The notes under the pieces: generated by a model
Told to the model about the DNA's origin: nothing
Databases searched by the model: none
What the model saw: the letters and a program-made list of their open reading frames with translations, nothing else
Assembly (NCBI GenBank): GCA_036172245.1
Contig: JAYWIR010000019.1
Coordinates: 1,302,001-1,366,000, forward strand
DNA from: Raillietiella orientalis
Taxonomy: Eukaryota
Reading direction: 5' to 3'
DNA length: 64,000 nt
Part shown: piece after piece, positions 13,142 to 63,900 of the stretch
Position numbering within the stretch: position 1 is the stretch's first letter
Layout: each line of letters starts with the position of its first letter
Translations under genes and position numbers: made by a program

Positions 13142-13860
13142 GACGGCCTTGTCGCCGACTACGCGCCCACCACCATCAGCAGGTGCTCACGGACGGCGCC
13201 CATCGCCTGCGCACACCAGGCAAGAAGACCTTCAACAGCAGGCAGTCAGCCACCACCACACGAGGATGACGCAGACGCGTGGAGAACCGAAGATCTCGAT
13301 CGAGAGGGTTGCCCCGGGAGCTGGCAGTCTCCAGCCCGGACTCTTCCGGCAGATGAGGCCCCTACACCGACCGAACAGGCGTAGCGCTTCAGGGTGGAGG
13401 AAAGGTTGCCATCCCGGGCGTCCCTTGCCCTTGCGTGCCGTCCAGCAAACGACCACGTGTTGAGGAAACGGAAAATTCCCCAGGGGATAGGCGGAGCTCG
13501 CACACACGTGGATGAAACACGCAGTGTTCGCGGGGACGCGCAACGGCAGACGTCAGACCGAGTCGCTCCCTCTGCAACGGAGGGCTTCCAAGAATCACGA
13601 GATGGAGCTGAAGAGAAGAAAGGCGCGAAGAAAGAGACGGTGGAACCCCCCCCTCGTCTGTCTGTCTTTCTGCACCTCCTCTTCAGGAGCAACACGACTG
13701 AGGAGACTTCAGGCGAGGTGGAGGCGGTGTGGACTGCGCATCCTGCGTGGAAGACCGAACCGGATGGCTGCGTTTTCGCAATCACCGGGAGAAAGCCCAA
13801 GGAGAACGGAAGTTTGAATTTTCTTCAGTTCTGACGCGGAAGCAGCAATTTGTGCACGTC
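13142..13860. repeat. Dispersed direct repeat, copy 1 of 3 (internal hAT segment)
   Basis: Near-identical to 34613-35218 and 43715-44440, with about ten differences over ~590 nt versus copy 2 by eye. Weaker similarity to copy 3 continues to ~13920. Confidence 0.97.
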
Positions 13861-14049
13861 GTTTTCTGAACGTCTCTGAGATTATTTACTGAAATCACTA
13901 TCATGGCAAAACATCTCTCAACTCTTTGCTGCTGGGGTTCCGGGAGTAGTAACGGAGGATCTCCAAGAATTACAGGAAGAGTTGAAAAGAAGAGACAAGC
14001 AAAAGGAGACGCTGGAAACTTGCCGATTCATGTGTAGAAATTCGCTTTT

Positions 14050-18300: not shown

Positions 18301-19701
18301 CGTGCTTGCGACATGGACCCTCCGGGGTCCCTCCAGGATCAAGGAGACAAGTTCCCTTCGGAATTCCTCTCCGGATGTGCGAATGAAGCCGTACCCCCCC
18401 CCCTCCCCCTAAGAAGAAGACCCTCCATCAAGCACCATGGAGCTGATGGATTGATGCCTCTCCAGCGCGTGAAGAAACGCGCTGCTCCCCTCGGGGAGCG
18501 ACCCTGCAAGGAAATTGGAAAGAGTTCTTTCGGGGCTCCCTTCAGAGGAGCAATCAAGGAGCAGATCCTTTCCAGGTACTCACTTGAGAAGAAATAATAA
18601 AACGATCCCTTCCGGGGGGTCCCTCCGGACAGAATAAGAAAAGGAGTTCGTTCCCCTTGAGCTTCCTTTGGAGGCTATGAAGGATGAAGCTGCCTGCAAC
18701 TCGGCATCCACGCCCGCTGCTCACTGCGGAAGATCCCGGAGTGCCCCAGCATGAGCACGTGGGAGGAGCGGACCCGCTCGCGGCAACGATGCCCTTCCCG
18801 AGGAGGGCACTTGGCGGCAGCCAAACTCCGAGGTGGAAAGTCTCCTGAGAGAACGCAGACAAAGGGAAGCTGAAGAGTGGATAGACTGTGGGGCAGCTGG
18901 CAGATGCTGCGACCCCGAGTGCCCTTCCACGAGAACTACAGCTGTGGAACGAGCTGCTCGGGATTCTTAGAGAAGACCTGGAGTGGTCCCTGGTGTCCAA
19001 GAACAGCAGCGCCCTCCCTTTGAAGTGGCGGGAGTCGGCACTTCTGCTGTTGCACTGGGATCTTTGCTGCTGCGCGCGCCGATTACCGCTGGACGCTGGG
19101 GAGGGTGGGTCCGGACTGTCGCACGTGCGGGGCGGAACGGGAATCCCTCCCGCACCTGCTCGCGGATCGTGTTGCCCCCAGCCCCTATGGGAACGTTTTG
19201 CAACGACCCACACTACGGATCCCGATTGGTATTAGGTACCCCCCTCCAAGGGACGTTTTACGGCTCCTCTCCGTGCGGGATGCCTTGCAGCCAGCCGCAG
19301 CCCCAGCAGCGCTTTGCTGCATCCGCCAGATTGCGAAGGCCTGGAGCCAAGCCTGCAGAGAAAGAAACGGGAGGGACGCCGTCCATTCCGCAGTTCGCTT
19401 TCCGCGGATAGCGGCCAGATGGCCTGGTCTACCTGGAACCTATTCGGATGGACCTAGCTGACATCCTAGAATAGCTGCAGAGGACTGACTCCAGTGGACA
19501 GTGGTCTCTTTTCGACGCATCCCAAGACTTTTGTTTCTTTTTATTTTCTCCCGTCCCCCTCCGCAATCGAGGAAAACCCCTTCGGTCGGCGTACGGCGAC
19601 CCAGTAGGTCCGTGGACAGACGGGTTGCGGTAGGACCACGCGTCCTACCACAATATAGGAGTTCATTTTCAATTTTAGTGAACGCCCTCCGGCGTGTCCG
19701 G
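18300..19701 (+). mobile_element. 5'-truncated L1/Tx1 3' end (zinc finger and structured 3' UTR)
   Basis: DAATP..LPLKWRESALLLLHWDL, CRTCGAERESLPHLL and RDALQPAAAPAALCCI; clearly homologous to 60530-61310. Confidence 0.85.
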
Positions 19702-19849
19702 CTGGAAATCGGAGACGACCAGGGAGAGGGTTCCCTTCGGAGTTTCCCTACCGAGCGTAAGAGGAACAGACTCTTTCCTTCAGAGCTCGTCCTGGATGTT
19801 TAGGGTGGTTCCTACGAGGTTACCCCTTATAACTTGAATAGTTGCGGAC

Positions 19850-22666
19850 ACCCCAGGGTGAAGTGGGCAGTGGTGAAGAGCTTCGTGTGCCTCTATGCGA
19901 ACGGTTCTTCAGTACTTAAAGAACAGAAGAAAAAACAAAACCCCAAAACTGAAGAAATCTGGAAGAAAAGCAGCAAAAGGATTTCCATCATTCTGAAAGC
20001 AACACAGATTATCCACATGCGAGAACGCGATCGTGCTGTGCTTATGGCGTAAATACTCCAGCTTCGCGCGGACCACCCCTTACTCCGTCGGAGAAAGATC
20101 GGGAAGCTCGTGTCTCAAGAGGGACTTGAGGTTCGCTCCGTTAAAACTCCCGCTCCTCTGTGACCAATATGTGGGGATGGTCCCGGACCATCGTCTGGAA
20201 GCGGAAATCACGACTGCAAGGGAAGCGAAAATCACTCGCCTTACGATCGTGAGCCTGCCCGTGTTCCCTCCAAGGAAGGAGACGTCCTTCATCTGAACTG
20301 GAAGACCGGAAAGTTACTTCCACTGCGCAGTCCGCCGTTTGCAAGAGGTCCACGTCCTCCGACGGTTGTCATCAAGTTAGTACTTCACTAATAATTAGGA
20401 AGAAGTTTCGACGAAAAACAGGAAAATAGTCTGTTGGAATAGTTTATGGCTACACAGGCATAGAAGGTCAGCCAGACTGCTCTCCAGCTACTTTCCACCT
20501 AGGAGGAAGAATTCTCATTGGTTCCCATTCTTGGCAAGTAGGCCCCCTCCTGATCATGGGGAAGTTTCCAGGAGAAGTTTCCATATGTAGAAAGTCAGTA
20601 CTTGTATTCTGAAGAGCTGTCTTAAGGATGATGTGCGATATGTGGCCAGGAAAAAGCCAGCGGGAGATCCGGCGATGAGGTCCGTAGCGACCGCAGCGCG
20701 CACCTTGGAAGACTAACCGAACCGGCCAGCGACTGCGGTTCGCCCCGAAGTTTCCCTCGGAGCAACTGGCGCCCGTCCAAGCGGAAGGAGCAGCAGCGAC
20801 CTAGCCGGTGCGCCTCCTACTCAATGATCTCGATCTGCCCTCGAACCTCCAACGCGTGGAAAGCCTGATTTGACGGAACGCCGAGGCGATCTCAGAGCCG
20901 GCGGATGGGTGGAAGGAGCATCTTCTTGGAGGCAGAACCGGCGCTGCGGAACGATTAAAGCGTCGGGTCACTGAGCGCGACACGAAGCGGATCCCACGGA
21001 AGGTGCCGGTCGCCATGGACGGCAGAACGATGACAACCGAAAAAGCGAGAACCCACAAGAGAGTGTAGGCGCCGGCTCGTCTGCCAGAGCAACTGACGCT
21101 GGGGCGAGGGACGCGCAGGCCTCGAGTACGAACTCGGCCTCCGGGACAGAGCCGTCATCGCCCTCAGGAGTTCCGCCGTTACAGGACGAAGAGTCTCCCA
21201 GGCGTGTCGGCGGGCGCAAGAGACTTTGGGCGCGAGTCTGTCTGAAGCCACTGCCACCGGCGGACATCTCGGTGATGGCAGCAAACGCTCCAACGAACAG
21301 CACCGGACGTCTATGCGAGTAGCCCTCGGGCGCAGTTCGGCCGACTCCGAGTCCCCGGACGAATGCGAGCTGCTGATCCTCGAACCAGCTGATGCCGGGA
21401 GGCGAATCGCCCAGACCAGGCGCTCGGGAACGCGAGTCCGGGGTCGGTCAGGACGCTGCCTGCCCACGCGGGAGGCGGTCGGCGGCCTCGAAAGAGGCGA
21501 GGCGAAGAAAAGAGGCGGAGCGCGGGGAGCCGTTCACTCCTCGTTGCGACGGGGAGGCGTGAAGAGCCGGTGCACTCCTGGGACGGCGACGAAGGAGGGC
21601 AGAGAGTCCGGGAACCACAGTCAGCCACGCTCACGGGCAGGAAGGAGGCGCACTGGGGAGGGAGGTCGTAGCCCCGGGCGACGACGCGCGTGCTGTGCCC
21701 GGACGCCGCACGGCGACACAGCAGCAGGCGATGGAAAACGGGTTGTGCCGCCGGCACGCAGGATGCGCTCGGGGCCTCAAAGTGACCCTCGGAGTCGCAG
21801 GGAAACTGCCCCGTCCAGTAAGCTCCGCGCGTGCGTAGGGCTTGCGCCGGAAGAGCGCTGTCAACGACTCCTTTAAAAAGAGGCGCGGTGACCCGAGAGC
21901 CTCTTGCTGTCCGTTCTCTGCACGGAAGGGACGGCGGGCCTCGTCACCAAGGGCAGCGTGCCTGAAAAGCATGAGGTCGGCCTCTTCTCTGCTGCATCCG
22001 ACGAGGTAGTCCCGAGGACGTTTGTGGGCAGACGGAGCTGTGGGCCGGAACTGAGGACCAAACCCTGGCATTTCGATCCATCCTCTGTGGAAGTCACGGA
22101 AGTTACCGCTTTGGTGCCCGGGGAACACGAACGAGTGGACGGTCCAGGACGAGCAGCTATGGGAACGCCTTCGACCGGGCAACCCAATGGCGCACACACA
22201 CATAGATCTCTGTGGGCAGCCACCCCAGGGACGTTTTTCGTCTTCTCTTCGTGAGGGATGCCCTGCAACCAGCCGCAACTCTGAAAGCACTTTGCTGCGT
22301 TCTAGGTATTGTGACTGGCTGGAGGGAAGTCAGAAGGCCAAGCAACGAGAGGGATGCCGTCGAACTCCTGCTAGTCCACTACCTGCAGAGTGCGACCAGA
22401 TGGCCCCACCTGGGCAGAATTCGGATGGATCCCGACGGCGTCCTGCAAAGGATGGAACCTCCTCCTAGTGGTGTGTGATCCCTTCCCAGCCCACCAAAAT
22501 CTTATTTTGTTTCTGTTTTACTTTTCATCCCCTTCCACTGCCGAGGAGAGTCACGCTGGTCTGCGTCCCGGCAGATCCGGCGTCGTGATGGCCGTTAGTG
22601 GGGCCTTGTACCACATTTTGTAATGACTTTGTGAAGACTTTGAATAAACGTCCCGGCGTATCCGGG
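19850..22666 (+). mobile_element. Internally deleted L1: ORF1 and EN relics joined to a 3' end
   Basis: The 3' end at 22200-22666 is clearly homologous (RDALQPAATLKALCC..RDAV..RWPHLGRIRMDPDG, then the UTR). Upstream relics are weaker: knuckle-like AVCKRSTSSDGC (~20335), HLGDG, and LEPADAGRR. No RT motifs seen between them. Confidence 0.6.
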
Positions 22667-22669
22667 TGG

Positions 22670-25600
22670 CAACATGAAATCCTCTGGATGCCTGGGTCGT
22701 CTGGGTCGGGTCCCTGGGGGCAGCCAGACTGGGTCAGCGCTAGTGATAGGAGGGCTGCACTGCAAGGATTCTTTCGGGCTGCCATCTCCACTCTCCACTT
22801 TCTTCGTGCTTCCGTGTGGCGACAGCTAGCCACCGCATCTGACGCGAGATCCAAGGAGGTCCGCGTTCGAGCTGCCAGGTGGCGTCTTGGATCCGATCGA
22901 TCGGCGAGTGGTAGGGGGCGTTTGCTGCGTCATCACCTCGTGCATGACGTCGCCCCACGGCGGGAAAACTCCCTCCCGTTTCCCGGGATATCGATTCCAG
23001 TTGTTTGCTCCTCTTCGAGGTGCTTTCTCCTCCTCCCCAGTGTTGGGAAAGCCGCAGCGGGATGGGAAACCATCCCGTTTTACCGTTCGGAGCTCAAGAC
23101 TCCGCGGTCCGTTTCGAGTTGGAACTCGCTTTCCCAGAGGGAGAGTGGGAAAATCGCGGAGACGCTCCCGAGCGTTGCTGCGGCCTGCCCGAAGTTCCCT
23201 CCATCCCCTCCTGCGGAGAGTGTTTGTCTTCCGGGGAACGTGACGTGACAGTTCCCGCTTGGCCTGCTTCTTTCCTCTTCCTTTGCTCTCTCCCCAACGG
23301 AAGTCTGCGGAGCCTTTGAAACACAGGACATTACTCGCCTTCCTGCTTGATAGCCTCGGATTTCGGCCACTTGAGGAATCTCTTTTTTTCCCCCACCTCT
23401 GAGAACAGCTGCGCACGTCAGCTGGCGGCCGGGACGATTTCCAGTGGGTGGATCCTCTGGTGCTCTTTCGATGGAGGAAATGGCACTTTGACCTGAGAGC
23501 GCCATTGCCGCCACCGTCGAATGCCGGAAGCAGTTGCTGCCGAGTGTACGGAATGCCTTCCTTCTTTGTGTTCTTCCGGGAAAGCAACCACGGTTCGGGA
23601 GAAGCGCGCAATCGGCGACCGAGGTTTTCCATCTGCATCCACCGTGCATTCATTTGGTTGCCTCTCCTCCTTCCTAATCCATCCGAGGAGCCTGCAATCT
23701 TGGTCTGCTCTCTCCTCTCTTTTCTGAGACGAACGCCCGTGCAACAGCGGCAACGCCATCTGCCGCCGCTCCCATCGGCGTAGGTGACGGGGCGCTCCAG
23801 CGACGAGCTTCTGGCGTGCTTAGAGGGAATGAATCCATCCCCAGGTACTCAGGACGACTCGCTGCGTATCTCGTTTCCAAGCGCCCACCCTCATCCTTAC
23901 GCCCAACTTGCACTCACCCCTCCTCGCTGGCAGGAGTTCAAACGAGGGACCTATGGGGCGACAGGTCTAACCCTCTCTGATGTGAGCAGGGGAGCGTCCG
24001 AGGTCACAGCCGTACCCACACAGGGACTGCTCCCGGACGTGTGACATCCCATTTTGCTCTCGATCAAAGTCTCAAGCTCCTTCGACGACGATGATCACCG
24101 CAGGCCATGGACGTGAAGAGACAAATCAAGGTTGGTCATTTCGATTTCGCGGCTGACTGGGCCGTTCATGCACCAGGAGGCGTTGAGGCATCGCTCGCCA
24201 CACGCATCTTCGCGCGTGCTTCCAGGCTGCGAAAGGGAGGAGACGATCCTGGTCGTTTGTTGCCATGTGTGCGCTCATCTCGCCTCGATGCTCCTTCGCG
24301 GTCAGCCTGTCTATTCGGAGGAATTTGCTTGCTGCTACTTCGTCCTCCTCTTCCCTCCTCCTCGTCCTTCGAATTAGAAGCTCCGCTCCTCGAATGTTTG
24401 GTCCCTCTGGTCTGGGGAACTCACCGTCCACTTCAACCCTGGCATGCTCCATGGGAACGGGTTCCTCAGTTCCCCTGCACGCTCGCATCTTCCTCTCCTT
24501 TTATTCGAACATATTCTGTGGCCCTGAGTGGGAGCGGCATAGGTCTTCGGAGCAGATCTGACTTCGTCGACGTGAGAGCATCCTCATTGAGCCTGGGTAG
24601 TAATTTGGAATCTGGGAATGATTGGTTCGAAGGACTCCTCTTCCCCTTATTCATGGGAGATTCCCTGAAGAAAATACATTCCAACTTCCTACGACTTCAT
24701 CTTCTTCCGTCCCCCCCCCCCCTCGCTTCAAAGATAAGTTCTCTCGTTTGGGGAATTGTCTTTCCTAGCCCTGCTGCTCCAGAACTCTGAAGCTCCTTCC
24801 CGAGATGCAGAAGCCTCATATTAATCTCTTTCATAACTCCAGATTGAATTCCGCGCTTGAGAACGAACCCCAGAAGATGGGACCGGCATTCATTATGGCT
24901 GCCTGGGAAGTTACGACGAAGCATCCTCACCCTCCGCGTCCCCTCTCTTCTCTCATTCCCTGTGCGAAGTCTCGAAAGCAGGCTAGGAAGTATCTCGGGA
25001 AGCGGGCGCGGGCGCGGATCCAGGTCTTCCGGTGCGCTCTTGGGACCGCTGTGGTGCGTTACCGGGATCCGTTTCAGCGATACGAGCAGCGGTCGGAGGA
25101 ACGGACCGCGTTCAATTGCCTCCACCACCCACCCGCCTCCACGCTTTCGCGAGCTTGCGCAGCCCCTGCACTGCTCCGCGCTCGGAATGTTGGCGCGAGA
25201 GTTTCCCGAAATACGGTGAGCGCCTGGTATGCGCGGACAACGCACGCGCTGACGCGGTTTCTTCCACGCGGTCTCGCCGTGGAGAAGACGTTTGGACGCT
25301 GGAGGGTAAGAGAGCCAGCGTGCCGCCCTTGGCTGGAGCGCCGTCGCCCGGCCTCTTAAAATTCCCCGCGCTGGCAGCAGCTCTTCGAAAGACAACCCTT
25401 CGTTTGTAGACACCTTTCCTCAGAGACCTTCGAAGAACGCAAGGCGGAATCCCAATGGAGGATCCCTTCGCCCTCAACTTCGAAGTAAAAGTTCCGGCGA
25501 GGCGACGGAGACCCCGTAGCAGCTCCCTCCAGGCGACAATGCCATTTGAGGCTCAGGAAACTCCCCCAAGGCGGCGATAGCACGCTCCAGGGAGCTGGAA

Positions 25601-27549: not shown

Positions 27550-28880
27550 ACTGTTTCCTGGAGGGAATGCTCCACCACTACCCTCATCCAAAACGGATAA
27601 AATCAGCAGCTTGAGGCCAGCATCTCTAGGAGGCCGCGCTCACAGGTTGCACGCAAAGCTCCTGTTGCATCACGAGCGGGAGATGGCGCCTCTTCCAGTG
27701 AGCAGGAGTTCTGGACTAGAACTTTGCGCTGCGGATCACTCTGGACAGAGATGGGCGGCCAACCAGGAATCTCTCTGCATTGCTTTCGGCACAGCCCGCA
27801 CCAGCTGATCCGAGAGAACTTGATGGGATTCCATCAACATACGCCTGCCTGCAGTGAGGAATCAACGCTCGCAATTCGATGGAGGAGATCGTCCGCAACC
27901 CGCAGAAGATGCGGGGAGCATCGTCTAACCCTCCCCCCCTGTCCCAGTGCTGCCCTCCTTAAAGGACGCAGGAAACAGCGTAATCCCGGCAAGGTGCTTG
28001 ACTTGTTTCATAGTAGCAAAGGGGAAACTTCTGGAGGCGCGGACAAATCGGGAAGTGACGAGCGCTGCAACCCCTAGTGTCCCACCCAACGGACTTGTAC
28101 GCTGCAAACAGCTGCTCGATATCCCTCCGGAGGATGTAAAGTGGCCTTCAACGTGCTGGAGCAGCGGCGCTCTCCCTCTCAAGTGGCGGGAGTTGCCGCT
28201 GCTGGCCTTGCACGGGGGAATTCCGTGCAAAGCGCACCTTCACCACTAGACATGGAGGGGAGTGTGAACTCTCGGTCTGCGCCAGGTGCGGGAAGTAGGA
28301 GACTTTCCCGCACCTGCTGTTGGACTGTGCTGCCCTCCGACCCCTTTGGGATCGCCTCGCGACGATCCTGGGATTCCCGGCGGGCGGCCCTGGGGCCACC
28401 CGCCGAGAATTCAAACGCCTCTTCGCTCGTGCCGCACCGCTGTCAGCCGCATCCCTTGCAGTTCCCTCCTTCTGTTTCATCGGGATCACGGCTGCCTGGA
28501 ACGTCAGAAGAAAAGGTTAGAATGTCAGGGACACCATTCACTGGGTTTACGCCCAGCGAATCTTCCTGGAGACCGCCTCGAGATGGCTCCATCCGGACGC
28601 TATACTGACAGAACTTGCCAGCATCCTGAACAGGATGCAGAGGACGCTTGGCAGCGTACTGTGATCTCTTCCTCGGTCCCCTACCTTCCTGTGTAGAATT
28701 CTCTTTCCCCTGTTTTGTTTGTTTGTTTTTGCTTTTCCTTCCATCACGCTGCCGACGCGGACCTCGCTGGTCTGCTCACTTCTCTTGGGCGGGCCCAATG
28801 CACGTGGTAGAACGCACGGTTCTACCACGCCAATGTATTCTTACTACTATGTGTAATAAACGCCCTAGCATAACTAGGTG
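27550..28880 (+). mobile_element. 5'-truncated L1/Tx1 3' end (zinc finger and structured 3' UTR)
   Basis: SAATPS..LPLKWRELPLLALH and CARCGK*ETFPHLLLDCAALRPLW; the UTR ends AATAAACGCCCTAG. Confidence 0.85.
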
Positions 28881-29619
28881 ATAATCAATATATTAGGGGA
28901 CACCTACGACTCCTGCAAGGTGGACGTTCTCTGCACAAGTACGGTGGGGTTTCGTCGTGGAAGGAAGCACGCATACCCTCCGTACTCTCTGAGATCGCTC
29001 TTTTTGGGAGAGGAAGCATCGGTCAAATGCAGCTCGTTCCTTGAGAGCAGATGACTTTGCTTTCATCAATGGACTAACACGGGGACCTACGAGGAAAGCT
29101 GCATAAAAGGGTCAGGAAATTCGCGAACCCACGGGAGTGGGTCACCCTCCCTCTGCCTTCCCATTCTGGAACGACCACGCCTTTTTATGGAGAAGCCTTC
29201 CGTTCGCCAACCGTTGCACTCGAAGCACTGCGTGCGTTCGGATGCTCCCGCAAGTCGTTCGAGGTCGCTCTGCCTGCGAGTCGATGCTGCCCTGAGAGCA
29301 GCCTGGAAGCAGCTGGTGCTTCACAATGATTCCAACAATTTGTCATTTTATTTTCGCAACCCTCTATATTATAGATATGTGATAAATAATCCAAACAATC
29401 AGGATATTATATTGCTCAAAGCGCATTCTTCCAAAAGGCTTCCAAGATGTAATTACGATTATTACACCGAATGTGGGGTACTTAATGAAAATATTCCCTT
29501 TGCTAATGATTGACTGCTGAAAATTGGAATCAAAAAGTAGACTTCAGACTGTGGACTGTCTAGCTAGAGGAAACTGGAGATTCACTAAAGACCTTTGAAC
29601 TGGCAGGGACGCCATCCAC

Positions 29620-29740
29620 TGGGCTTGAATCTTCCTGAAGACCGCCTTGATATGATCCTACCTAGGCGCTACAGGGACTCGAACTTGCCAACATCCGGCA
29701 CAGGATGCAGAGGACGCCAAGCAGGGTCGTCTGTTCATGT
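29620..29740 (+). mobile_element. Short L1 ORF2 3'-end fragment inside the hAT relic
   Basis: gaatcttcctg.agaccgcct...gaacttgcca.catcc...acaggatgcagaggacgc aligns with 28557-28650. Confidence 0.7.
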
Positions 29741-39549: not shown

Positions 39550-42110
39550 GCCTTTTTGCTTGACCCTTCTGTGCTGACCAGCACTGACAGCCCTCCGAGA
39601 ACAGCTTTCCTGCTTGGTACCTCCGTCTCCTGGGTAACGCGGAGGGGGAATCGCCTTTAGAGATCGTTCCCGTTCCATCCGACCTCAGCAAAGTTCGTGA
39701 TGGAGTTTCCTCCATAGAGCCACCCTCCTTCTCCCATCCTTTTGCATCCGTGGAGGCATCTCGCGCTCCCAAGTCCAGGTCAGTCATCTCTCCATGATGG
39801 AGGGACTCCATTGCATACTCCGCAGATTGCTCCTCCAGATGATCAACAGCTGCTCCCTCCGGAGCCCGGAATCTGTGAGCTCCGGTGAGCTGCCTCCTCT
39901 TCGAAACCTGTCTTCGATTTGGGATTTCGGCTTTCCCCCATGGCAACAAAAACAAAACCGGCGGGTACGAGAGGGTAGGATGAAAAATAGGAAGATCTCG
40001 GGAGTGCATTTGCATCCAGGGTTCCCCTCCGAGCTTTCTCACGGAGAGGTCTCCCGCGGACATGGCCGTCGCCACCGCAACTATACGGTGACGGAATGAT
40101 CGCGGGGGCTCTCCTCTCTGTAGCTGGGCTTAGGCTAAGCCGTTAAGTGGCCGCAGCTGCCCGCAAGAATGCGCCCGCTCATTTCTAGCGGGGACTTTCC
40201 GTGAAGTGGAGGATTTTCCGCTCGGACGCCGGCGGCTTTGCCTGTGGGAGCTCAGGGGTAGGAAGGGACTTGATGTGCTCTTCCCGCTCTGCAGCTGACA
40301 CGTGCCGCCATCTTCCAATCACCGTCTTCTATTTCCTCCCACCCACCCCTACCCAATGTTCGTGAGGGAATTCCGCGACACGCAACCACGGCCGGTCCGC
40401 TTCCCTCCGCTGCCATTCCTTTTCCAGTGCTTCCCGTGGACCTCTGGGAGAGCGATCGCAGGAGTGCATCAGCATGGCTTCCTTGCTCTTTTCGCTCTTT
40501 CGGGACTGCTGCTTTCTATGACGAGGGACTTACTCCCTTCCTCCTCCTTTCCTCCCTTCCTCCTCTTCCCAAGTAAAACAAAGTACAGAGAGTTACAGAA
40601 AGTAAAGCGAAGACGTTTGGCATTCGCTTGGATGACAGGTGGAAGATTCCCGTTCTTCTGGAGGAAATGTTGGTCACTCTGTGTGGCAAGAAGCAACGAT
40701 GGCTCTGCATAAAAAGAGAGTGACTCCTTATCTAGTTTCTTCCTCCAAGAAGAAAATCGAAGCGTCTGGAAGATTCTTGCTAGAAATTCTTCTCTTTCTG
40801 CTTCGCTTCCGTTCTGCTTGAAGGAGGTATGAGCAACGTACGGAATTTTCTCTCGGGGAATGGCGGAGCAAGAAAGGCAAGGGTCAAAGAGAGCTGCAGC
40901 TGTCTACCTATTTCATGAATACAACAGATTTGGCAGCAGTCTCTTCCATCACTAAAGAATGTTTTCACGGGTCCGTAGAGGGAGTCTTCTGCTAGATCTC
41001 CAGCTGCGAAAAAATAGATCCCCTAGAACCATCATTCGAATGACTAAAACCTCTGGTACTTCGAGCAGCAAGAACACACAAATGATTATTCTAATACCTT
41101 GTGGTCCAACCTCTTGCGGAGCGCCTGACGGCAGTGGGCTGTTGAGTCCTCGGCTGCATATCAGGGAATGCTTCCTGAGAGTCTTTGCCCCCTGCGACAT
41201 TTGCTGCCACGACCTCTGGAATTGGTGATGCAGGACACAGTAGAGTGGAGGATTTTATCCACCACACCTCTTGCCGCAGGGCTGCCTTTCCTCAGAGAAA
41301 GAGATAACAGTAGCCTACAGGCGAGGTGGGAGTTCTCCTGCATCCATCATGGGAAGGACGAAACTTCTTGGCAGCTGGAAGACGCGCGAGTTGATGGATG
41401 CTGCCACTCCGCGTGCTGTGGCGACGGGACTACTTCGGCAGAGTGAACTTTTGAGTGTACCCCTAGAAGAGCTTCTGATTTCTCCTTAATTTCTGGACAC
41501 TTATGCACTTCCCCTCTCTTGGAAGCAGGCTGGGCTGCTCTTTCTCTACTGGGGATTAGTGCAGCGAGTGGTGGCACTTTCGTTTCCGCAGGAGTTCCAT
41601 CCCCGAACTGCGCCAGCTGTGGGTCGGCGGAGTCAATCCCACCGCACCTGCTTTTGAACTGCGATCCGCTCCAGGGACTGTGACTGAGGCTGGCAACAGA
41701 GCTCCCGCACGAGGAAGACACCGTCCGCGACCTGCCGAGACGGTTCTTCGCGCCGGGAGAACTCACGACGGGCGCAGCGATCACAACCATCGGTTGCATC
41801 CGTGCCGTCGTCACGACTCGCCATGTGCTGGAGACGACGACGCAGCGCAAGGAGGTCACAGGGATCGCAGCCGCCTACATGATGGATGTTGCAAGGTGAC
41901 CTCATCTCCAAGAAGTCAAGCAGGAAATCGGCGGTATCCAGAGCCGGTTTTGTACGGTGGACACTGGTGAGCCCTTTCCTTAGCCTCCATTTATTTTATT
42001 TTATCTTATTTTATCTTGTCTCCTTCCCCACTCCTTTTCGCTCCGTAACTTTCCCGGTTCTTGTATGTTGATCCCGTTGAATACAGAACGAACCCAAGGA
42101 CCCTTGTTCC
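39550..42110 (+). mobile_element. 5'-truncated L1 from RT to the 3' end
   Basis: GNRL..FHPTSAKFV and DFGFP (RT), then DAATP..ALPLSWKQAGLL and CASCGSAESIPPHLLLNC. A T-rich UTR start follows as in the sister copies, but the rest of the UTR is more decayed. Confidence 0.65.
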
Positions 42111-42399
42111 AGCATCCCGGATTTCCTCCTTTTTTTGTTATCCTTCCTTCCTTCCCCGTTCCGGACTTTTCGATGTCCTGATCAGCGTCTCGGCAGACCC
42201 TCCCTTCAACTTCTTTTGTCGTTAGCTGGCGACCAGCGTGTTCTCAGCTGGTTTATTTTTATAGAACAGGTGAACAGGTGAAAAACTTTTTGTGGAAGTT
42301 GGCGAGTCTTCTGAAGTCCATGGAAGGCAGGTGTGCGCCATCAGACGCCTCTCATAGAGTTCTCACGCTCTGCGGAGCGACAAAAACATTCTCCCCTTC

Positions 42400-43412: not shown

Positions 43413-44520
43413 TTCAAACTTCTGACCACTTGGGATGCGAAATCGTAAAATCCAATCACAGAGGATGCTGCGTTCGATGGCGGGAGAGTGGCCACGCGCA
43501 CCATCGCCGCCCGCAAGATTTCACGCGCGTGGACGTCGGCAGAAAGCTCAGCGGTCCCACCGGAAGCATCTCGGCCCTCGGCTCGCAGGAGTTTCCGCAG
43601 GCTGCAGTCACGCGCGCGCTCGAAATGGAAAGCGCCCGAGGTCACGTTCGCAAACTCCCCACTCGGCGCGCGCAAAACCATCTCCGACCCACTCGACGCA
43701 CGCGAGGCAGGGCGGACGGCCTTGTCGCCGACCACGCGCCCACCACCGTCAGCAGGTGCTCACGGACGGCGCCCATCGCCTGCGCACACCAGGCAAGAAG
43801 ACCTTCAACAGCAGGCAGTCAGCCACCACCACACGAGGATGACGCAGACGCGTGGAGAACCGCAGATCTCGATCGAGAGGGTTGCCCCGGGAGCTGGCAG
43901 TCTCCAGCCCGGACTCTTCCGGCAGATGAGGCACCTACACCAACCGAACAGGCGTAGCGCTCCAGGGTGGAGGAAAGGTTGCCATCCCGGGCGTCCCTTG
44001 CCCTTGCGTGCCGTCCAACAAGCGACCACGTGTTGAGGAAACGGAAAATTCCCCAGGGGATAGGCGGAGCTCGCACACACGTGGATGAAACACGCAGTGT
44101 TCACGGGGACGCGCAACGGCAGACGTCAGACCGAGTCGCTCCCTCTGCAACGGAGGGCTTCCAAGAATCACGAGATGGAGCTGAAGAGAAGAAAGGCGCG
44201 AAGAAAGAGACGGCGGAACCCCCCCCCCCCCCCTCGTCTGTCTGTCTTTCTGCACCTTCTCTTCAGGAGCAACACGACTGAGGAGACTTCAGGCGAGGTG
44301 GAGGCGGTGTGAACTGCGCATCCTGCGTGGAAGACCGAACCGGATGGCTGCGTTTTCGCAATCACCGGGAGAAAGCCCAAGGAGAACTGAAGTTTGAATT
44401 TTCTTCAGTTCTGACGCGGAAGCAGCAATTTGTGCACGTCTTTGCCGTCCCTGAACGTCTGCGAGCTAAGCCGTGGCTCAGTGCGCTACTGAGGTCACTG
44501 TCATGGCAAAACTCTCTGTT
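43413..44520 (-). repeat. Dispersed repeat copy 3 of 3 (internal hAT segment, longest overlap)
   Basis: Near-identical to copies 1 and 2. Its intron at 44181-44255 has a C15 run, versus C8 and C7 in the other copies. Confidence 0.97.
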
Positions 44521-44637
44521 CTCTATGCGGCTGAGGCTTTATTCGGTTGTGAGGTGTCGACGGAAATCCGGAACGCCGAAATCGCGAAAGATCACAAACA
44601 CATAAACACACAGATCAATTTAGAACCTTTTTTTAAT

Positions 44638-48480: not shown

Positions 48481-48489
48481 GCTACGATG

Positions 48490-51400
48490 GGTACGCCGGG
48501 ACGTTAATTTTAATAAAAATAGACATCTGCAGATGATTGTGGTTGGATCAGTGATCCAACCACGTCCGTTTTACCGGGAGCCTGGAGGGTTACTGGCTGG
48601 CAAGCGGGTGGGATCCATCACGGCAGCAGAGAGGGAGGAGATAGACAAAAAGAAAAAAAGGAACACAAAAATGAAAATAAGTAAACTTTGGGGGGTGAGG
48701 GAAAGGGTCACGTCCTGCTGGGAGCAGCCTTCTACATCCTTTGGAGGATGCCGGCAAGTTCTTGTCTCATGGAGTTGTTCATATAGGGTCATCCCGTTGC
48801 CATCCTCACGAATCAGACGGCGAAGTGGATGTGGCACTCCTGTCGCTGTGTCCTCCTCTTGCATTGCTCCAGGCAGCAACGATCCCGCGTAGGTAGCAGA
48901 GGGTTGCTAACGTGGCTGCTGGCCGAATTGCGCCGCAGACGAGAGGGGTTTCAAAGCGTCCCTGGAGTCGCCTCTAGGGGTTCTTAGAGTCGCGGCGAAG
49001 CGTTCCCAGAGGGACTGGAGAGGGAAACACAATCCACAAGCAAGCGAGAAAGGGATTCAGTTCTCAGCTCCTGCCACAGTTGTGGTCCATACACACTCTG
49101 TGACCAGTGATGCTGGAGGGCGTTGCACAGGAGGTCCCAGTACAGCAGCAGCAGCAGCGCCGACTCCTGCCACTTCAACGGGAGGATGTGGGTGTCCAAG
49201 AGCACTGGGGCCACTGCAGATCTTCCACCGGAATTTCCAGTAGCTCTCCCTAGCGGTAGCCGGAATGGATGGGTTTTGTCGATGTGCGCCGTTTCGCCAA
49301 CTTGAACGTTTGTGGACTGGAGCCGCAGTAAAACCACCTGGTCTCTTCGGATGTTTCCCAACACAGGCTTGTGTTAGAATCAACCGTTATGATTCGAAGC
49401 TGCCAAAAGTCGGAAGCCTAGATGCTTAGCTAAGCAAAACACCTCGCCTGTACAGTGGGGTATCGACGAAGAGATTTAGGCAAACTCGTTGCCTTCGACC
49501 CAACGGCAAATGCTGTCCACGATGCTTGCAAATGCCCAGTGACCTGTGAAAGAGACCAATTTTTCATAGCTTCTTGCGCGGTCGTCGCGCCGAAGCCAGG
49601 AGGCACGATCTTTATTCCTGGAAAACCCGAACATCTCTCTCGGGTTGAATCTTCCCCTTTCGTTCGACTTTCGGAGGTTCTCTCATTTGCCTAGGATCCA
49701 CGCATGCTGGTCCGTAGGATCAAGATACGGAACGAGTGTACGTGCATCACATACATGTAGAGGCAGGCAAAGTCTCAACTACAAATGTCTCAACTAACTA
49801 TAAATGTGAGGAAGAGCACGACGAACGGGAAGAACACCTCATGAAAAATCCACATTTTAGAGCTGCTCCGGATTAACATCTAGAAAGAAGGATATCTTCA
49901 ACCGATTCTGGATCAGCTCGTTGCTCTCTTCGTTTGCTGGAAGAGCTTCTTTCTTCCACGACCTTCTTTCTTCCATAAAAATCATTCCTTGCCAAGTACA
50001 GTTAGGATGGAAGGAGGAGGGGAAATCTGTATCAATCGAGTCCTCAGAGAGACTCTAGGGAGGCTGTTATCATGATGCACGGACAAAGTAGTGATAGGAA
50101 ATCTAGACTTTTGGTCCAAATGTCTAGTTTCAGTCATTCTTCAGAGCATTAAGGGGTGTTTCTGCTGCCCTTATCAGGATTCCTCCTCTATCGTTGTAGA
50201 GTCCTCTGATCACTCCCTTAGGGTTCAGCAGTACAGAGGGCAGCATCCTTGAGTAGGTGGCGAAGTGTGAGATCTGGACTCCAGCGAAGCAATCAAAATT
50301 CAATCGCCCGTCTGCAAAAAGATCGCTGGCATGCAGAGTTCATCTGGGCGCTTCGTCCGCCAACACCCCCATAGCAACTCCTGTGGGGGCTTTCTCACTG
50401 TTGCATTTCATCGTTTTCAGGCTCTGAAAACCACCTTTCGTCCACTACATATCCAAAGCGCTCATCTCATTTTGACAAACAGAAGGGATTGATAGTTGAA
50501 GGACAATTCCTGTTCCATCATGCTCCTTATTCTCTTCTGCTGAAGACTACCTTGTGCAGCTTGCTTTCGGGCTTCAGTCGTGAAGTAAAAATTCTTCCCC
50601 CATGGTTTTTATTTTCGTTGGAACAGTTTTGTACAAAGGAGGAAAGCATCTGTATTCCTATTTTTCAGGCTTCCCACCTGCCATGGGCAGGAGCAAGAAC
50701 CATGTGATTCTCCCAAAAACTGTCTGACTTCACATCACTTCTGTATTGATGCTCGTCCCTCTCCGTGACTTGTATAATTTCCGCTCGTAATCAAAAGTTC
50801 TCCAAGAAAACAAGCGGATTGCTAGCGGCAAATTCACCACTTGCCTCAAGTTTGTGTCATGTGTCCTGGAGCAACCAAAGCATAGGTATGATCCAAGTCT
50901 CGTGGAAGACTTTTTTTTTTTTCGATCGCACTACGATGGAAAAGAGGACATGCTGTTCCCTAAAGCTGCAATTTAGGAAACTCTCTCCGATCATCTCATG
51001 CAACTGAAATCCTCCAATCTTGCTGACGACTCCTTGGATACTTCTGATCTTCGTGCCTGCATTTGAAAGCTGATTGAGCGCTCCTGTAAGTTGAGGTATT
51101 CATGGATTCCTAGACTCTTCAACTGTGCTGCTAGAATGATCAAAATATCTCCTTTTCATCTCAAGAAATGGTGGGAGGTACTGTCCTGTGTACATTCGAC
51201 CACCGTACTTTTTAATGTGTTTTTCGATGCAGAAGGTAGTAAGGGATCCTTCACCAACTTCGGCATTCTTGTGGCAAAATTCTTCTTTCTTTCTACACTA
51301 GCAGTATAATGTGCTGGTTTTCCTACTGCTTCACGATCAGGAGGTTTGTCCTCTACACTCACCCGTTCATTAATTGGAATGGAAATTACTCTCATGTGAC

Positions 51401-57619: not shown

Positions 57620-60600
57620 ACCTCGTGACACCCGCTGCCGGGATCCACGGTGGAAGGAGGAGGCGTGCGCTTTAACAAGCAGCACTCCCGAGCGACGTGC
57701 GCGTGGCTGTCGCCTGGGACTCTGCGCACGCTGCCAGGTCCCTCCGCTTCCCTCTTCCTCTCTGCAGTCTCCCCACCTTTTTTCGTGCTGCACGAAGCCA
57801 CTCCTAGTTGGCAGGGTTGCTTCTCCTGGGGAACCCGAAGTCTTCCTTGGCTTTCCGTTCACCTGTTCCCGCGGCCGACCTGCTCACGCGTGCCGGGTTC
57901 CTCTCGTGCCTGAGTCCTCTTTCCATCCACGTGGGCGGAGCGCGTGCTCCTCTCTGGGAAGAGATCTTTCCGATCTCGAAGGGGTGCAGACACTGCTGAT
58001 CTCCTGCGTGTGGCTTTGCTTTAATCCCATCCCCTTTTCGAACTCCCCGTGGGAAAAGCGGAGCAACTCCTCGGACGCATCTTTCATGCTTCCGTTCGAA
58101 GGAAGAAACGCATGTGCGGGGGCGGGCTTGCGTACAGTCGAGGATGGCCAGTGACCTCTTCACACGCCTCGACACGGTCGACGCGAAAAGAATGCAGGAT
58201 GGCCTGCCCGAGGGCTGCAGAGAAGGCAAAAGAGTTCACCCCTGCAAAGCAGCGACCCACAAGGAAGGCGCAAGCATTCGCGCCGAAGGGGACGGTGCCC
58301 CCTTTCGCGATGCACTGTAGCTGTCGGACGTCAGTGGGCGCCAACGGGTGCGTTCCCTTGGCTCGCTTCTCCCTCTAACCGTTGGCTATGCTGGGAATCC
58401 TAGCGGCGCATTCCTAGGTCACGGGTATTGCAGGCGGAACAGAGGTCCAAGATCTCCTGAGGGGAATGAACTTTTGGAAAGCAAGCAGGAATTCTCCGAA
58501 GAGACCCAGGGGCTCTGGAAGTCGATCCGGCAGTCTCGCTCGGGTAACTTCTCCTTCTAATGAGAAGCGGTGGACAGCCACAGGGGTACGCGTTGACGCG
58601 CATCTTCCTGGTCAGCGCGGTGCCGCATGCCGCGCCGATCCCAAGTCGCTCAACGAAACGCAGCCAGAAGAGCATGGCGCGAGAGGATCGCCTTCACCAT
58701 GGTAACATCCTCCTCGAAGACATCCAGATGGTCTTACCTTGGAGGACGGATGGAGTTAAGGCTGCAAGTGGCCTGCATGATGGGGGTATGCACGTGGCAT
58801 TTCCTCCCTCTCCTTGGCCTCTTTTCCCCCCTTTCGCACACAGGATGTTGCCTATTTGCAGCTTTCTTCTCCCCTGCCCCGAGGCGGACTCACCGTCTTC
58901 TTGACATGGCATCCAGAACTTTGGTAACCACTAGGGTCTTCAATAGCATTCTTCTATTTTTATTTTCATTTTTGTGTTGTTCTTGTTGAAAGTCAAAATG
59001 AAATCCCTGGTGAGATCTCGTCTTCCCGAAATGTCCAACAATTTCTTGTGCAAGAATGACTAAGACTTGTGTGGGAGGAACAGCATACACTGGCCAGAAG
59101 TCAAAGGCGCTGCCCTCGTTGTGTACAGAACCAGACAGGAGTGGGGGGAGAGGAGAAAGAGGGTAAATAACGAAATCGGCTAGGGAATCGACCGGCCTTT
59201 CGGTAATCGACATGATTCCCGTGGAACTGCGTCGCATAGAGAAGGAATGGAGCTTGCCCATCGGCATCGTGTCGGCATCGCTTCTTCTGGAGCTCGTGGC
59301 ACACATGAGCTTCTCTGACACTTTTACGGCCTTTCTATGCTCCTGCTGGAACGACGTACTGAACATTTCTTTCAGTGGATGAAGCGTGCACGGCGTGCCG
59401 GTGCGCCGCGGGATACGGCAGGGCGACAGCCTTCAGCACCTACTTTGCGCTGGTGCTGAGGGCGTACAGAGGGACTCTGGCTCTCCTGCTGTTTGTGTGT
59501 CCAGGCACACCTGCCGTGTCAGTGTATGCGGACGATCTTCTGCTGCTGCCCCTCATGTCCACTCTGGAGTCGGCACTCGAGGGCCTCTTTGAGCTGCTAA
59601 GCCGTGAGACAGGACTCGAGGTGAACAGGACGAAGTCGTCTGCGGTAGCAGTCGAATCGCGACGTGGGCAAGGCAGCTGGACTGGATCCGCTTGGAGATC
59701 CCCACGGTTCAGTACTTCAGGTGCCTAGGTATACTGTCGAAGGACTATTCCCAGGCGCAGGCGTGGTCCGTCTGCCTCCAGAAGGTCTAGTTGGCGATCA
59801 GCCCGTTCCAGGATGGCAAGTTTCTCTTTCAGGAACGGGCCGCAGTGTGGAACACGTTCGTGGTCCCCCTCCTCTACTTTCTGCTCTTTGTTTGTTCTCC
59901 ATCGAAAGATATAAAGAGGCGGACGAAGGCCCTCCTGAGAATCTCCCTGTGGGACACAAGGAGGTTCCGAGTCCTCCTGAAGGACTTGTGCGCTCTGAGA
60001 CGCGACAGAGGCCTCGGCCTCCTAACGCTGGAGCGCCTGGAGCAGAAGCACCAGCAGAGGACACTTGCCCTATTGGAGAAGCTATGGCGCACGAACTGGT
60101 ACGAGTCCGCACGATACCTGGTCAGGCCAGCCACCGACTATGTGGGACTGTCATTCGTTCCTGGTGCGGTAACGCCGAAGCAATGAGTCCCACTGTGGAA
60201 TGGAGCTCTGGTGAGTGGCCACCCTGACCAGGATCGACCTGGCTTACCTGCTGGCCCGCGAACGGTAGTGCCTGGATGCAGGAAAGCCTTCGCACATGGG
60301 CCAAGAGCAATGAAGCGAGCCTGGAGATGCGGCAGCGACTGCTGCACTCCTTCTACAACTTGCTGCAGGCACTCCATCACGTGTGCGTGGGCGGAAAAAA
60401 ATTTCTAGCTGCGGCACTACCCTCCTTCAGGTAGCATTTGAGCAGTAACCATCAAGCCAAATGGAAGATCAGTTGTGAAATCTTTGTGAGGAAAAAGGGA
60501 TTAGGTGGTTGGACCACGGATCAGCTCACGGACGCTGCAATCCCAAGTGCCCCACCAAAAGGATTACTGAGCTGAGTTGAGTTGCTGGGAATCCTACAGG

Positions 60601-61310
60601 AAGTAACCCCAGGACTGAAGAACAATCGAACCCTCTCCCTGAAGTTGCAGGAATCGGCACTTCTGCTGTTGCACTGGGGTCTCCCGTGCAACGCCCGCCG
60701 GTCTCGCTGGACACGGGAATGTGTGGACCCCAACTATTGCGGGGGCGACGACCGGGAATCCCTCCCTCACCTGCTTGTAGACTGTATTGCCCTCCGGCCC
60801 CTGTGGTTGCTTCACGCAACGGCCTTTGGTGCACCGAGGACAATCCCAGGGACGTGATAAAGCACGTCTTCGTGTGCGATGCCCCTTCGCCTGCCATGTC
60901 CCCAGCAGCTCTTTGCTGCCTGCGTGGAATTGTGGCAACCTGGAGCTACATGAGAGGAGGACGGCACGATAGAGACGCCGTCTACTTCACCCTGCGCTTC
61001 CTGCGAATGACAGCAAGATAACTCCACCCCGGGCATATTTGGATGGAGCCTGAGGGCATCCAGGAAAGGATGCAGAAGACGCCCTCCAGCGGACAGTGAC
61101 CCCTTCCCTAACCCTCCCAAATTTCTGAATAATTTTTTTTTTGTTTTTTTTAGTTTTGTTTGCCCCTTCCTCCTTTGCTACCGAGGCGAACCTCGCCGGC
61201 CTGCATGCCGGTTACTCGGCAGGTTCCGAACATTTTCGGACGCTGTAGGGTCGATGACCCTACACCTGTATGTTTATTTTATAAGGAACGCCCCGGAGCT
61301 ACGGGTTGTT
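57620..61310 (+). mobile_element. Best-preserved L1/Tx1-type ORF2 pseudogene (APE-RT-zinc finger) plus 3' UTR
   Basis: EN: VLHEAT, WQGCFSWG. RT: VRRGIRQGDSL (~59400-59432), YADD (59525-59536), GLEVNRTKS (~59612). Then RDRGLGL (~60001) and LSLKLQESALLLLHWGLPC..RESLPHLLVDC. Several frameshifts and stops. Confidence 0.92.
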
Positions 61311-61311
61311 A

Positions 61312-63900
61312 GCCTACGGTCATCGTGTGTTTGCCCAACATCTTCCCAAGATTCGCCTGAAACTCCCATCCCAGATGGAGCCATTCGGTTGCCCCTTCGC
61401 ATGTAGGCGAACGGCGTCGACCGCGTCCCGGAAGGCGCGACTCGCACCCTTCCCCTGTCTTCACGGCAACAGCCGCTAGCGCGTGGCGGACAATAGTCAG
61501 CGAGGAGCCCACGCCAGGCCGGAGCGAGACTCAGCATTCTCCTCAGTAGGTCTCGTGGGAGAGCATCACGGAGCTGACGTGCCTCAGCGATGCTCTCCCG
61601 TCCCTAACGCATTCAACGGATGCGTGCGACAGGGTTACCACTATACCGCAGTTGGGGCACACCCCGGACACTCTCCACACTGATGGGTGGCGCCACTTCT
61701 CGTTGCAAGGACAGTGTTCAGTGAGCCAGTAAGATGACAGTCTGCAGGGACAAAAGGGAAGGGAGACTGAGGCGTCCATTAGGACACCCGGGATGTCTAG
61801 TGTTTCACCCGGATTAGCGAGCAGCTCCACCCACCTCTGCGTGGTCTTTAGACAGATCTGTCGGCGCGGATTCGATCCTTTTCCATTGCGCGAATGGACC
61901 TGTTGACCCTCGAGAGCAGGCAGGTCACTTCCCTTGCCGCAGGAATATCCACTTCTCTCATCGGTACACTAACAGACGCATGGAGTCCTGGATGACCTCG
62001 CGATGGATCTGGGAAGCTGGGGCGCATCCTCCAGCATCTCCCCGACAGGAAGTTTTCCTCCAGGGATGTGATGGCGCTGCGGTCAGGGAGGGTAGGATTT
62101 TTCCACGCTGCTGCCCCCTTCTCTCGGGATGCAAAAGGAACGCCTCTGTCGCGGAAGGGAACCAGGGTACTCTGGAACTTTACCAGCCGTACGGGTCTGA
62201 CCTCCCTCGGAGACAACGAATCCACAAATGTTCCCAGGCAAGTCAGGACGCGAAAATCACCCCCGAGCAGACCAGTTCTCATTCACTTACGAGCAAAAAG
62301 CCAGGATTTTCGGCCTTTGCTGTTGATCTGAACGCCGGTCAAAAGACTCGAAGGTCGCCTCGAGTGGGGCTGAAGGGATCAGGCACCTTGTCAGCAGGAG
62401 GAGGAGTCTGCATGCCTTACCGTATCGTCGGACCTTGCCGGGAGACCGGCTGCTGTGTGCCGGTACGGCATCAGTTCTGATAGAAGGACAGGCTGCTGAA
62501 GTGTGTCGGGCTCAGGGATTCTACCTGACACATCTCCCGTCCAGTGTCCTCGGTTCGGAGGTCACTAGAAAAAATGGAAATTTTCTCATCGTCCCTGAGC
62601 GGAAGCGGGAAGTCGGGGAGGCTGGCAGGGGAACCAAGATACTCCTTCGGCTTGGCGAAGAGCTCCCGAAGGGCGCTGACGAAGACCCTCTTCAGCCAGT
62701 GCTGCTCCCTTCTCGGGGGCTGTCCCGTTAGGTACACTTTCGCAACCTGTGCCGTTTCTGGAAACGGCATCGATCTCTCGTTCTTCCTCCCACAACTGGA
62801 GTATTCTAGGTGCGGGATGGAGCAAGCCGGCATCTACGGCCCCGCCCGGCACCGTGCAGGTGCCAAGCGTCCTATGCGCGTGCTCCACGCTTCGGAGGGC
62901 AGCTGGACATCCACGTTCGCATCCGAATGGCGGGACACTAGCTGCCGAGGCAAGGGGAGCCTTTTATTTTCGGCGAAAGGTCCACCTTGGCTGACCTGTC
63001 TCCAGGATGAACGGTTGCAGAGTATGCGTCGAAGGCGCCAGCTCAGCCACAAAAAGATTAGAAAACCCTGTGCTCAGCTCGCCCACTCGTTCGGTGTGCT
63101 TTCTGGCCAAAGGCTACAGGCAGGCTGACGGCAGGGGCCTCGATTAACTACATGGCGCAGTTCTCTTCAGGAGGTGCCTGTCTTCTGTAGGAAGCTGACT
63201 TCACCTACAGGGGATGTGGATCCCTGGTAAAGGCCATCAGGGTCTTCGCATCCTTCGCTGGTCACCTGAAGCACCCTGAAGTCGAGGACCTCTCCGAATG
63301 GAAAGCCACAGTGCTGGTTCGAAGAAAAGTCCAAGCAGTTCGTGGGGTCACCTTTGAGATAGGTCCGTAGGTTCCGGCGTGACCGGGTGTCAATTTTCCA
63401 TCTGCGCCGCACGCGCAGATGGAAATTCCGGCCCTTTCGGGGTTCTCCTTTCTCCCGCTCGTCTCAATGATTCCGGGAACCTGACGGCGTACCCGTGGGG
63501 TCGTTCCCAGGAATCTTCCCCAGCTCCTTCTTCCTCCTGGACCACCTGACATTTTCCCAGCCTGCTGCCTGGGGTGGGAGCGCTGGACTTTACTTTTTAT
63601 TCCCCGAGGTTCCGACAGGAGTGGGGATCTCACCCCTGATGAGCCATTTTCCCTCCCACTCCATCCCAGGGAGGTAAGGGGCAGTCGAGAGGTCGAAACT
63701 AGGAGTGCTGCGCTCTTCCAGCAAGGCTGGCAACACGGTCATCCTTTGCTCTGCCCGAGGCATTCTGCATTCGCATGCGGAGGAGCCACGAAAACGACAG
63801 CAAGGGGAACTCTCGAAGAGTGGTCGCCGTGCGTAGTCCATGCTTTGCCGGGATAATGGTAGCCAACCGACCCGAAGATGTAGAATGAGAGAGGAGAGGC
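61312..63900 (-). mobile_element. Decayed L1 5' half (ORF1, EN, linker)
   Basis: KVYLTGQPP..LKRVF and RCVR*NP*ARHTSAACP (knuckle, ~62535-62487); LLGGDF, PDRSAI and GRCWRMRPSF (EN); RVAPSG..PFAY and WLHLGWEF (pre-RT). The 5' boundary is uncertain. Confidence 0.55.

Follow-up and report, generated by a model that had tools for sequence, protein, structure and literature searches.

Conserved hairpins at the tail-less 3' end of L1-group LINEs in Raillietiella orientalis

How is the 3' end of an L1-type element defined when the element carries no poly(A) tail? The question is raised by a 64,000-nt stretch of the Raillietiella orientalis genome (GCA_036172245.1, contig JAYWIR010000019.1, positions 1,302,001-1,366,000 of the forward strand), hereafter the window. 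A preliminary description of its sequence had recognised five diverged copies of a LINE sharing one 3' layout, and the 11 stretches quoted in it were all found at the positions given. The copies and further traces of related elements are the following (+, forward strand; -, reverse strand):

59269..61099 (+): family A, decayed and 5'-truncated ORF2, from the RT to the zinc finger; tblastn, 44-49% identity
61097-61099 (+): family A, ORF2 stop codon
61120..61165 (+): family A, T-rich tract of the 3' UTR, read from the sequence; the tract occurs in all family consensuses
61178..61222 (+): family A, outer stem S0 around hairpin H0 (61196-61211); the loop is CUGCAU here, CUGCGN in the family
61244..61264 (+): family A, hairpin P1, 9 bp
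61272..61289 (+): family A, AU-rich candidate hairpin P1b, whose 3' arm (damaged here) is the AATAAAC-type motif
61288..61308 (+): family A, terminal hairpin P2 (damaged in this copy); stem nearly invariant, 5-nt loop variable
61309..61313 (+): family A, element-coded last 4-5 nt and inferred 3' end without poly(A); register borrowed from the duplications of sister copies
18688..19708 (+): family B copy, ORF2 remnant and tail; P1 at 19629-19649, P1b at 19661-19683, P2 at 19682-19704
22206..22672 (+): D-lineage copy; short P1 at 22598-22614, intact P2 at 22649-22668
27998..28884 (+): family C copy; P1 at 28803-28829, P2 at 28864-28878 with copy-specific CG-to-TA changes
48489..49250 (-): family E copy; P1 at 48539-48563, 3' arm of P2 gone
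41102..42300 (+): sixth, more distant copy (tblastn, 26% identity) with a damaged but recognisable tail near 42.2 kb
63374..63399 (+): isolated P2 remnant with terminal bases; nhmmer E 0.00085, no match in the reversed-window control

The five copies had been described as a single subfamily. The ends of their ORF2 are only 65-70% identical, and each copy retrieves its own relatives; we therefore assign them to five families, A-E, of one L1-group clade. Relatives were sought in the 210-Mb genome, where each query gave from 410 to 2,369 candidates, 40 of which were scored and 30 fetched. The ORF2 remnants of the window were delimited by tblastn with the open ORF2 of a young relative as query. 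The sixth copy, absent from the preliminary description, has a tail recognised by a weak profile match (E 0.65) and by eye. No target-site duplication of its own is recognisable for any of the five copies (best scores 5-8). Tail-less ORF2 fragments also occur at 29601-29717 (+) and 61606-61848 (-), and the 19.6-kb copy of family B has two 99% identical duplicates just outside the window (L031-L033), one of which is inverted. The window also holds three copies, 93-98% identical, of an unrelated repeat (13142-13937, 34311-35204 and 43413-44536).

Searching with the D-lineage copy yielded a young family, in which 14 of the 30 fetched loci are 93-100% identical. Ten longer genomic pieces outline an element of about 6 kb with two ORFs. 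ORF1 (699 aa) contains a zf-CCHC domain scoring above the Pfam cut-off; a CCHC knuckle in ORF1 is a feature of the Tx1 clade. The ORF2 open frame of the young relative (1,160 aa) matches RVT_1 (E 1.9e-22), as well as Exo_endo_phos (E 7e-4) and zf-RVT (E 2e-3), the latter two under the Pfam curated cut-offs. Compared with solved structures, ORF2 finds human L1 ORF2p as its best match (E 2e-43), followed by R2 proteins at E 4e-15 or weaker, these being the only two clades among the matches listed. The closest database relatives are 28% identical. In a tree of 11 sequences of this genome and 29 database hits, none of the latter a labelled Tx1 reference, the R. orientalis sequences all fall into a single clade (100/100), which sits on a long branch and takes no firm position among the database hits. 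As in the L1 group, 5' truncation and duplications of about 10-20 nt are present. Taken at this level, the evidence supports the broad L1-group (L1/Tx1) label, and does not establish membership of Tx1 itself.

The 26-nt terminal motif, composed of AATAAAY and P2, occurs at 3,158 places genome-wide when up to two mismatches are allowed, and the reversed pattern at none; 3,158 is a lower bound on the number of ends in the genome. With a P2 pattern, 256 distinct ends were extracted from the fetched DNA, 202 of which fall into 13 clusters of three or more, and 54 of which are single or paired. The layout seen in the window, i.e., stop codon, T-rich tract, hairpins, AATAAAC-type motif and P2 with no A-tail, holds genome-wide. 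Six or more A residues are found within 30 nt in just four of the 256 ends, one of which may be a true short tail (L204, about 11 A directly after P2). The absence of a tail is not peculiar to old copies, as the young family is also devoid of poly(A).

Target-site duplications locate the end precisely. At a threshold score of at least 10, duplications were detected in 54 of the 198 ends with the 5' boundary in view (144 were negative, and two of the 54 probably represent a single locus that was duplicated), compared with 1 of 396 in a mismatched-pair control. Duplications measure 10-19 nt, and in 46 of the 54 cases start 3-6 nt past P2. Elements end 4-5 nt past P2, usually in two or three A residues, and the duplication follows directly. 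The terminal A-run hardly varies in length: 33 of the 35 D copies have two A. In one family, a single A is frequent. The target has AA in front of the duplication in just 1 of 50 cases, so the terminal A residues are element-coded. Because duplications begin 3-6 nt past P2, this hairpin belongs to the element and indicates where its 3' end lies; even inserts as short as 62 and 74 nt, with duplications on either side, terminate at P2. These short inserts dispose of the possibility, raised at the outset, that P2 is a repeat present at the target. A U2 origin was likewise rejected: the duplications enclose P2, and Rfam gives no match for it. A telomere-like ending was considered for family A, the extra bases of which turned out to be part of the duplication. 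Structured sequence past the end was in turn considered as a ribozyme, a 5' UTR or a longer tail, and each was rejected: the same sequence is found on both sides of truncated copies, showing that it belongs to a host repeat, called X.

The tail consists of three conserved hairpins (H0, P1 and P2) and a possible fourth. The preliminary description had listed parts that are all present; it had missed the hairpin with the CUGCGN loop, set within an outer stem upstream of P1. RNAalifold, run on a sequence-only alignment of 27 copies picked to span the families, recovered H0 and P2, and missed P1, the length of which varies. In these 27 copies, H0 has the best covariation of the tail, with double changes in six of six pairs and 88% pairing; S0 has double changes in four of six pairs (70% paired), P1 has both sides changed in eight of nine (71%), and P2 has double changes in none of seven (95%). 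Taken over the four helices, and for H0 and P1, covariation is above that of every one of the 500 shuffles, which take no account of relatedness, and above that of all slid registers. One family (L069:2742-2916 and L232:296-470) has an H0 loop that differs from CUGCGN, and keeps the stem, P1 and P2. A kissing interaction between the loops of H0 and P2, or between the H0 loop and the linker, was rejected, as no compensatory change was observed and family C breaks the P2-loop version.

P1 covaries between families, as had been claimed. Its stem is 9-13 bp long in 9 of the 13 family consensuses, with scores reached by at most 1 of 300 shuffles, but only 4 bp long in the other four, which belong to the D lineage, include the youngest family and score no better than chance. 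The weak P1 noted at 22.6 kb does exist, and is a trait of this lineage rather than a product of decay. Here the short P1 (e.g., 22588-22614) has two overlapping possible stems, which, judged from consensus variants, could form an H-type pseudoknot; in one of the two, families D and G differ by a compensatory change. Four window tails fold better than dinucleotide shuffles, with z values of -2.8, -3.1, -3.2 and -3.1, the 22.6-kb copy does not (-0.7), and the consensus tail of the youngest family, at +0.3, folds no better than shuffles. P1 pairs are almost all Watson-Crick (88, with 5 GU and 2 AC), and so settle neither the folding strand nor the choice between RNA and DNA. A strand test on GU versus AC pairs (18 vs 9, p 0.12, partly double-counted) is not significant.

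P2 behaves differently from what had been proposed. Rather than covarying, it has an identical 5-bp core in 13 of 13 consensuses, and double changes occur at chance level. Among the 119 loci that could be registered on P2, out of 150 gathered by ORF2-plus-UTR similarity, five compensatory doubles were seen and 5.6 were expected under independence. Two of the five come from the family C copy, in which cctag/ctagg had been read as covariation; these are CG-to-TA changes, typical of CpG decay. The constancy of P2 among the 256 ends is inflated, since those ends were gathered with a P2 pattern. As P2 is conserved and does not covary, it is the folding that argues for its pairing; its outer G-U pair is retained in 27 of 27 copies. 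In the minus-strand copy at 48.5 kb, P1 is present as described, and P2 has lost its 3' arm. Between P1 and P2, the AATAAAC motif can pair in most families with an upstream GTTTATT (P1b). In family B, the hexamer is AAGAAA or another variant, and a compensating C is found in the pairing arm of 4 of 23 copies. Since this compensation is confined to B copies, we propose P1b as a fourth hairpin only tentatively, and the hexamer may serve as a poly(A) signal. With an L1-group ORF2, conserved hairpins and no poly(A), the families correspond to the L1-clade lineage with a structured, tail-less 3' end that the first reading of the window had suggested.

Several families have a landing site of their own, either in repeat X or in sister LINEs. 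The sites of X present in the window are:

19709..19995 (+): downstream part of repeat X, into which the copy inserted at the family B site; host sequence, outside the tail
about 19830 (+): family A site in the same part of X
about 19990 (+): family C site in the same part of X

Families A, B and C insert in sense orientation at three X sites, and F in antisense orientation at a fourth. Family D inserts in antisense orientation in the RT region of a sister LINE. Recurrent flanks were found in 20 of 24 (B), 22 of 34 (D), 10 of 18 (F), 12 of 38 (A), 8 of 29 (C) and 0 of 22 (E) cases, some of which may not be independent insertions. Copies inserted off target still have the first 2-5 nt of their family site. 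In family D, off-target sites additionally have bases on the upstream side of the nick in common, which speaks for the endonuclease. Repeat X is long and rich in UUCG-type hairpins, contains motifs resembling a B box, and ends in a hairpin, a T-run and an A-run. On these features, X is probably SINE-like; searches for tRNA and Rfam matches gave no call. X, which has an A-rich 3' part and offers at least four distinct landing sites to LINEs, occupies 18300-18690 and 19709-19995 of the window, and is also found in L006, L027, L072 and L084. Regions L151-L170 consist almost entirely of nested sister LINEs, often in antisense orientation at repeated sites.

What does the tail do? Recognition in cis is its likeliest role. 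The best reading, which we hold with moderate confidence, is that this 3' UTR of a lineage-restricted L1-group clade works as a recognition tail of the stringent type, with P2 determining where reverse transcription begins. ORF2 would bind its own RNA via the tail hairpins, and the nearly invariant P2, common to the families, would set the register at which reverse transcription starts; the P2 core is constant in all 13 consensuses while P1 and the loops change. RNA past this register, either poly(A) added near AATAAA or read-through flank, would stay uncopied. Choice of the family-specific site would fall to the endonuclease, perhaps aided by 2-4 nt of pairing between RNA and primer. A bolder version, to which we give a rather low probability, makes P2 a universal ruler: reverse transcription would start within a read-through transcript, at the border between the element and the target-site duplication. 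Bases past the end would then copy the landing site of the family and pair with the nicked DNA, and one conserved tail could serve many families that inherit new targets, in a SINE-like repeat or in sister ORF2 genes, with their priming apparatus unchanged. Retention of the first 2-5 nt of the family target at off-target sites is compatible with this version, as is the internal priming seen in truncated U4 copies (see below). Against it stand an override test for RNA-primer pairing, which gave no signal (6 vs 5 in 48 insertions), and the upstream bases common to the off-target sites of family D.

Three other explanations of the tail were weighed against stringent-type recognition. The tail might be a 3'-processing cassette, in which AATAAA specifies cleavage and polyadenylation some 24 nt further on, with P2 placing the cut; reverse transcription would then start in the first A residues of the added tail, leaving the terminal AA. 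Some 24 nt before the end, AATAAA is indeed the most frequent hexamer (15 of 26 in A, 17 of 21 in C, 23 of 29 in D and 8 of 17 in E), this spacing fits the usual 10-30 nt of a poly(A) signal, and most families end in two or three A residues. However, AAGAAA or other variants take the place of the hexamer in family B, where 4 of 23 copies have the compensating C; a single terminal A is common in one family; and the A-run, which is two residues long in 33 of the 35 D copies, varies too little for priming within a tail. We regard such processing as a doubtful account of the end, although it can coexist with stringent recognition.

It is less likely still that the hairpins are maintained at the DNA level, by palindrome correction during replication or by a fold of the first-strand cDNA, with no recognition of RNA. 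The nearly exclusive Watson-Crick pairing of P1, antisense folding energies that resemble those of the sense strand, and the non-significant excess of GU over AC pairs in the symmetric count would all be in keeping with this. Correction alone, however, would not be expected to produce a fixed position relative to the insertion end or a fixed CUGCGN loop, nor does it sit well with the outer G-U pair of P2 kept in every one of the 27 copies, or with a terminal 26-mer that is near-invariant in elements whose ORF2 ends are 65-70% identical. A precise end and several hairpins could also suggest a self-cleaving ribozyme that creates the tail-less end. We consider this very improbable: Rfam ribozyme models match none of the tails, none of the 13 consensuses has a hammerhead core, and the sequence past the end varies between families and off-target copies, leaving no conserved downstream half.

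These LINEs differ from several known systems. Unlike mammalian L1 of the relaxed type, they carry no poly(A) (at least six A residues in just four of the 256 ends) and their target is not A-rich (AA before the duplication in 1 of 50 cases). L2 tails end in short tandem repeats; here, terminal tandem repeats are absent, and P2 is followed by 4-5 nt and then by the duplication. The closest parallels are found within the L1 clade. In monocots, L1 lineage 1a (LINE1-1_ZM, with ZmSINE2/3) has a 3' hairpin with compensatory changes, which was read as evidence of stringent recognition, and L1-clade families without a 3' repeat account for 9 of 233 in flowering plants and 5 of 15 in green algae (PMC3472496). 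The R. orientalis elements resemble the monocot 1a L1 and Chlamydomonas L1-1_CR in clade, in their conserved 3' end and in having a covarying hairpin (PMC3472496). Those elements feature one hairpin in about 50 nt and partner SINEs, and a poly(A) end is stated for L1-1_CR (PMC3472496). The 3' end described here has three or four hairpins spread across some 140 nt, is tail-less and goes with family-specific targets. Consequently, "possibly undescribed", as the tail had been called, is too strong for its kind, structured L1-clade tails and repeat-less L1 ends being on record (PMC3472496). For this particular tail, no published description was found in the largely open-access literature searched, Repbase and Dfam lying outside the search. 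The terminal motif had no match in a metagenome collection, a resource ill-suited to eukaryotic repeats. As for a partner SINE, no shared head was seen by eye among the 22 of 256 ends that lack ORF2 (the genome has at least 3,158 ends).

Other clades offer partial likenesses. ORF2 of zebrafish L2 binds a 3' stem-loop (PMC4176376); a 3' stem-loop is what the present tails have in common with ZfL2-1, ZfL2-2 and eel UnaL2, in which it is recognised by ORF2 and has family-specific loops. Targeting recalls the Tx1 clade, for which insertion of Tx1L in Tx1D, of Tx1-Mar in Mariner-N4_AMi and of Keno in U2 genes is reported (PMC4494074). As in those APE-type LINEs, families here occupy fixed places and orientations inside other repeats, with different sites for different families, and tandem copies share a duplication; a structured, tail-less end is not described in the portions of PMC4494074 consulted. 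The targets differ, being a SINE-like repeat and sister LINEs, and the likeness is one of targeting. In R2Ol (PMC6795142) and likewise in R1Bm, as cited in PMC7265360, the start is fixed by annealing of downstream target sequence contained in the RNA. These elements share with ours target specificity and a precise 3' junction. There the RNA reads on into the target, and both elements are rDNA-specific and belong to other clades; here the pairing step is a proposal.

Tail-less insertions of another kind were found among copies of U4 snRNA. Forty of 191 candidates were examined; of the 39 with a located end, 35 are 3'-truncated and four look full-length. The truncated copies are tail-less and cut at about nt 70-80 (e.g., L011:2898-2971 and those in L261-L299). 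Eighteen of the 35 have a duplication, the start of which overlaps the continuation of U4 by 2.3 nt on average, compared with 0.43 in shuffles. The overlap indirectly supports internal priming, as in the tailless retropseudogenes of therian L1, which are attributed to internal priming with short complementarity between RNA and target (PMC5322556); the RT that copied U4 may differ from that of the LINEs described here. Therian retropseudogenes are passenger RNAs inserted at A-rich, TT/AAAA-like targets (PMC5322556). In R. orientalis, in contrast, the autonomous element itself is tail-less and its targets are not A-rich. The window also includes a full-length match to U4atac snRNA at 35417-35539 (+), which scores 55.5 bits, above the Rfam gathering score, and may be a gene or a retrocopy.

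Structured LINE tails, target-specific L1/Tx1 elements and internal priming are already known in principle. The analysis adds a count of ends for the whole genome, shows that the distance between P2 and the duplication is constant from family to family, and corrects the view of P2, which does not covary but is conserved. With open frames in a young family, a common terminal hairpin and many targets, these LINEs would lend themselves to tail-swap and endonuclease-swap experiments on what sets the start point and the landing site. If the stringent-type reading is true, R. orientalis would harbour an L1-group lineage in which structure defines the base where reverse transcription begins, with neither poly(A) nor a repeat tail, and this would bear on the origin of stringent versus relaxed RNA recognition in the L1 clade.
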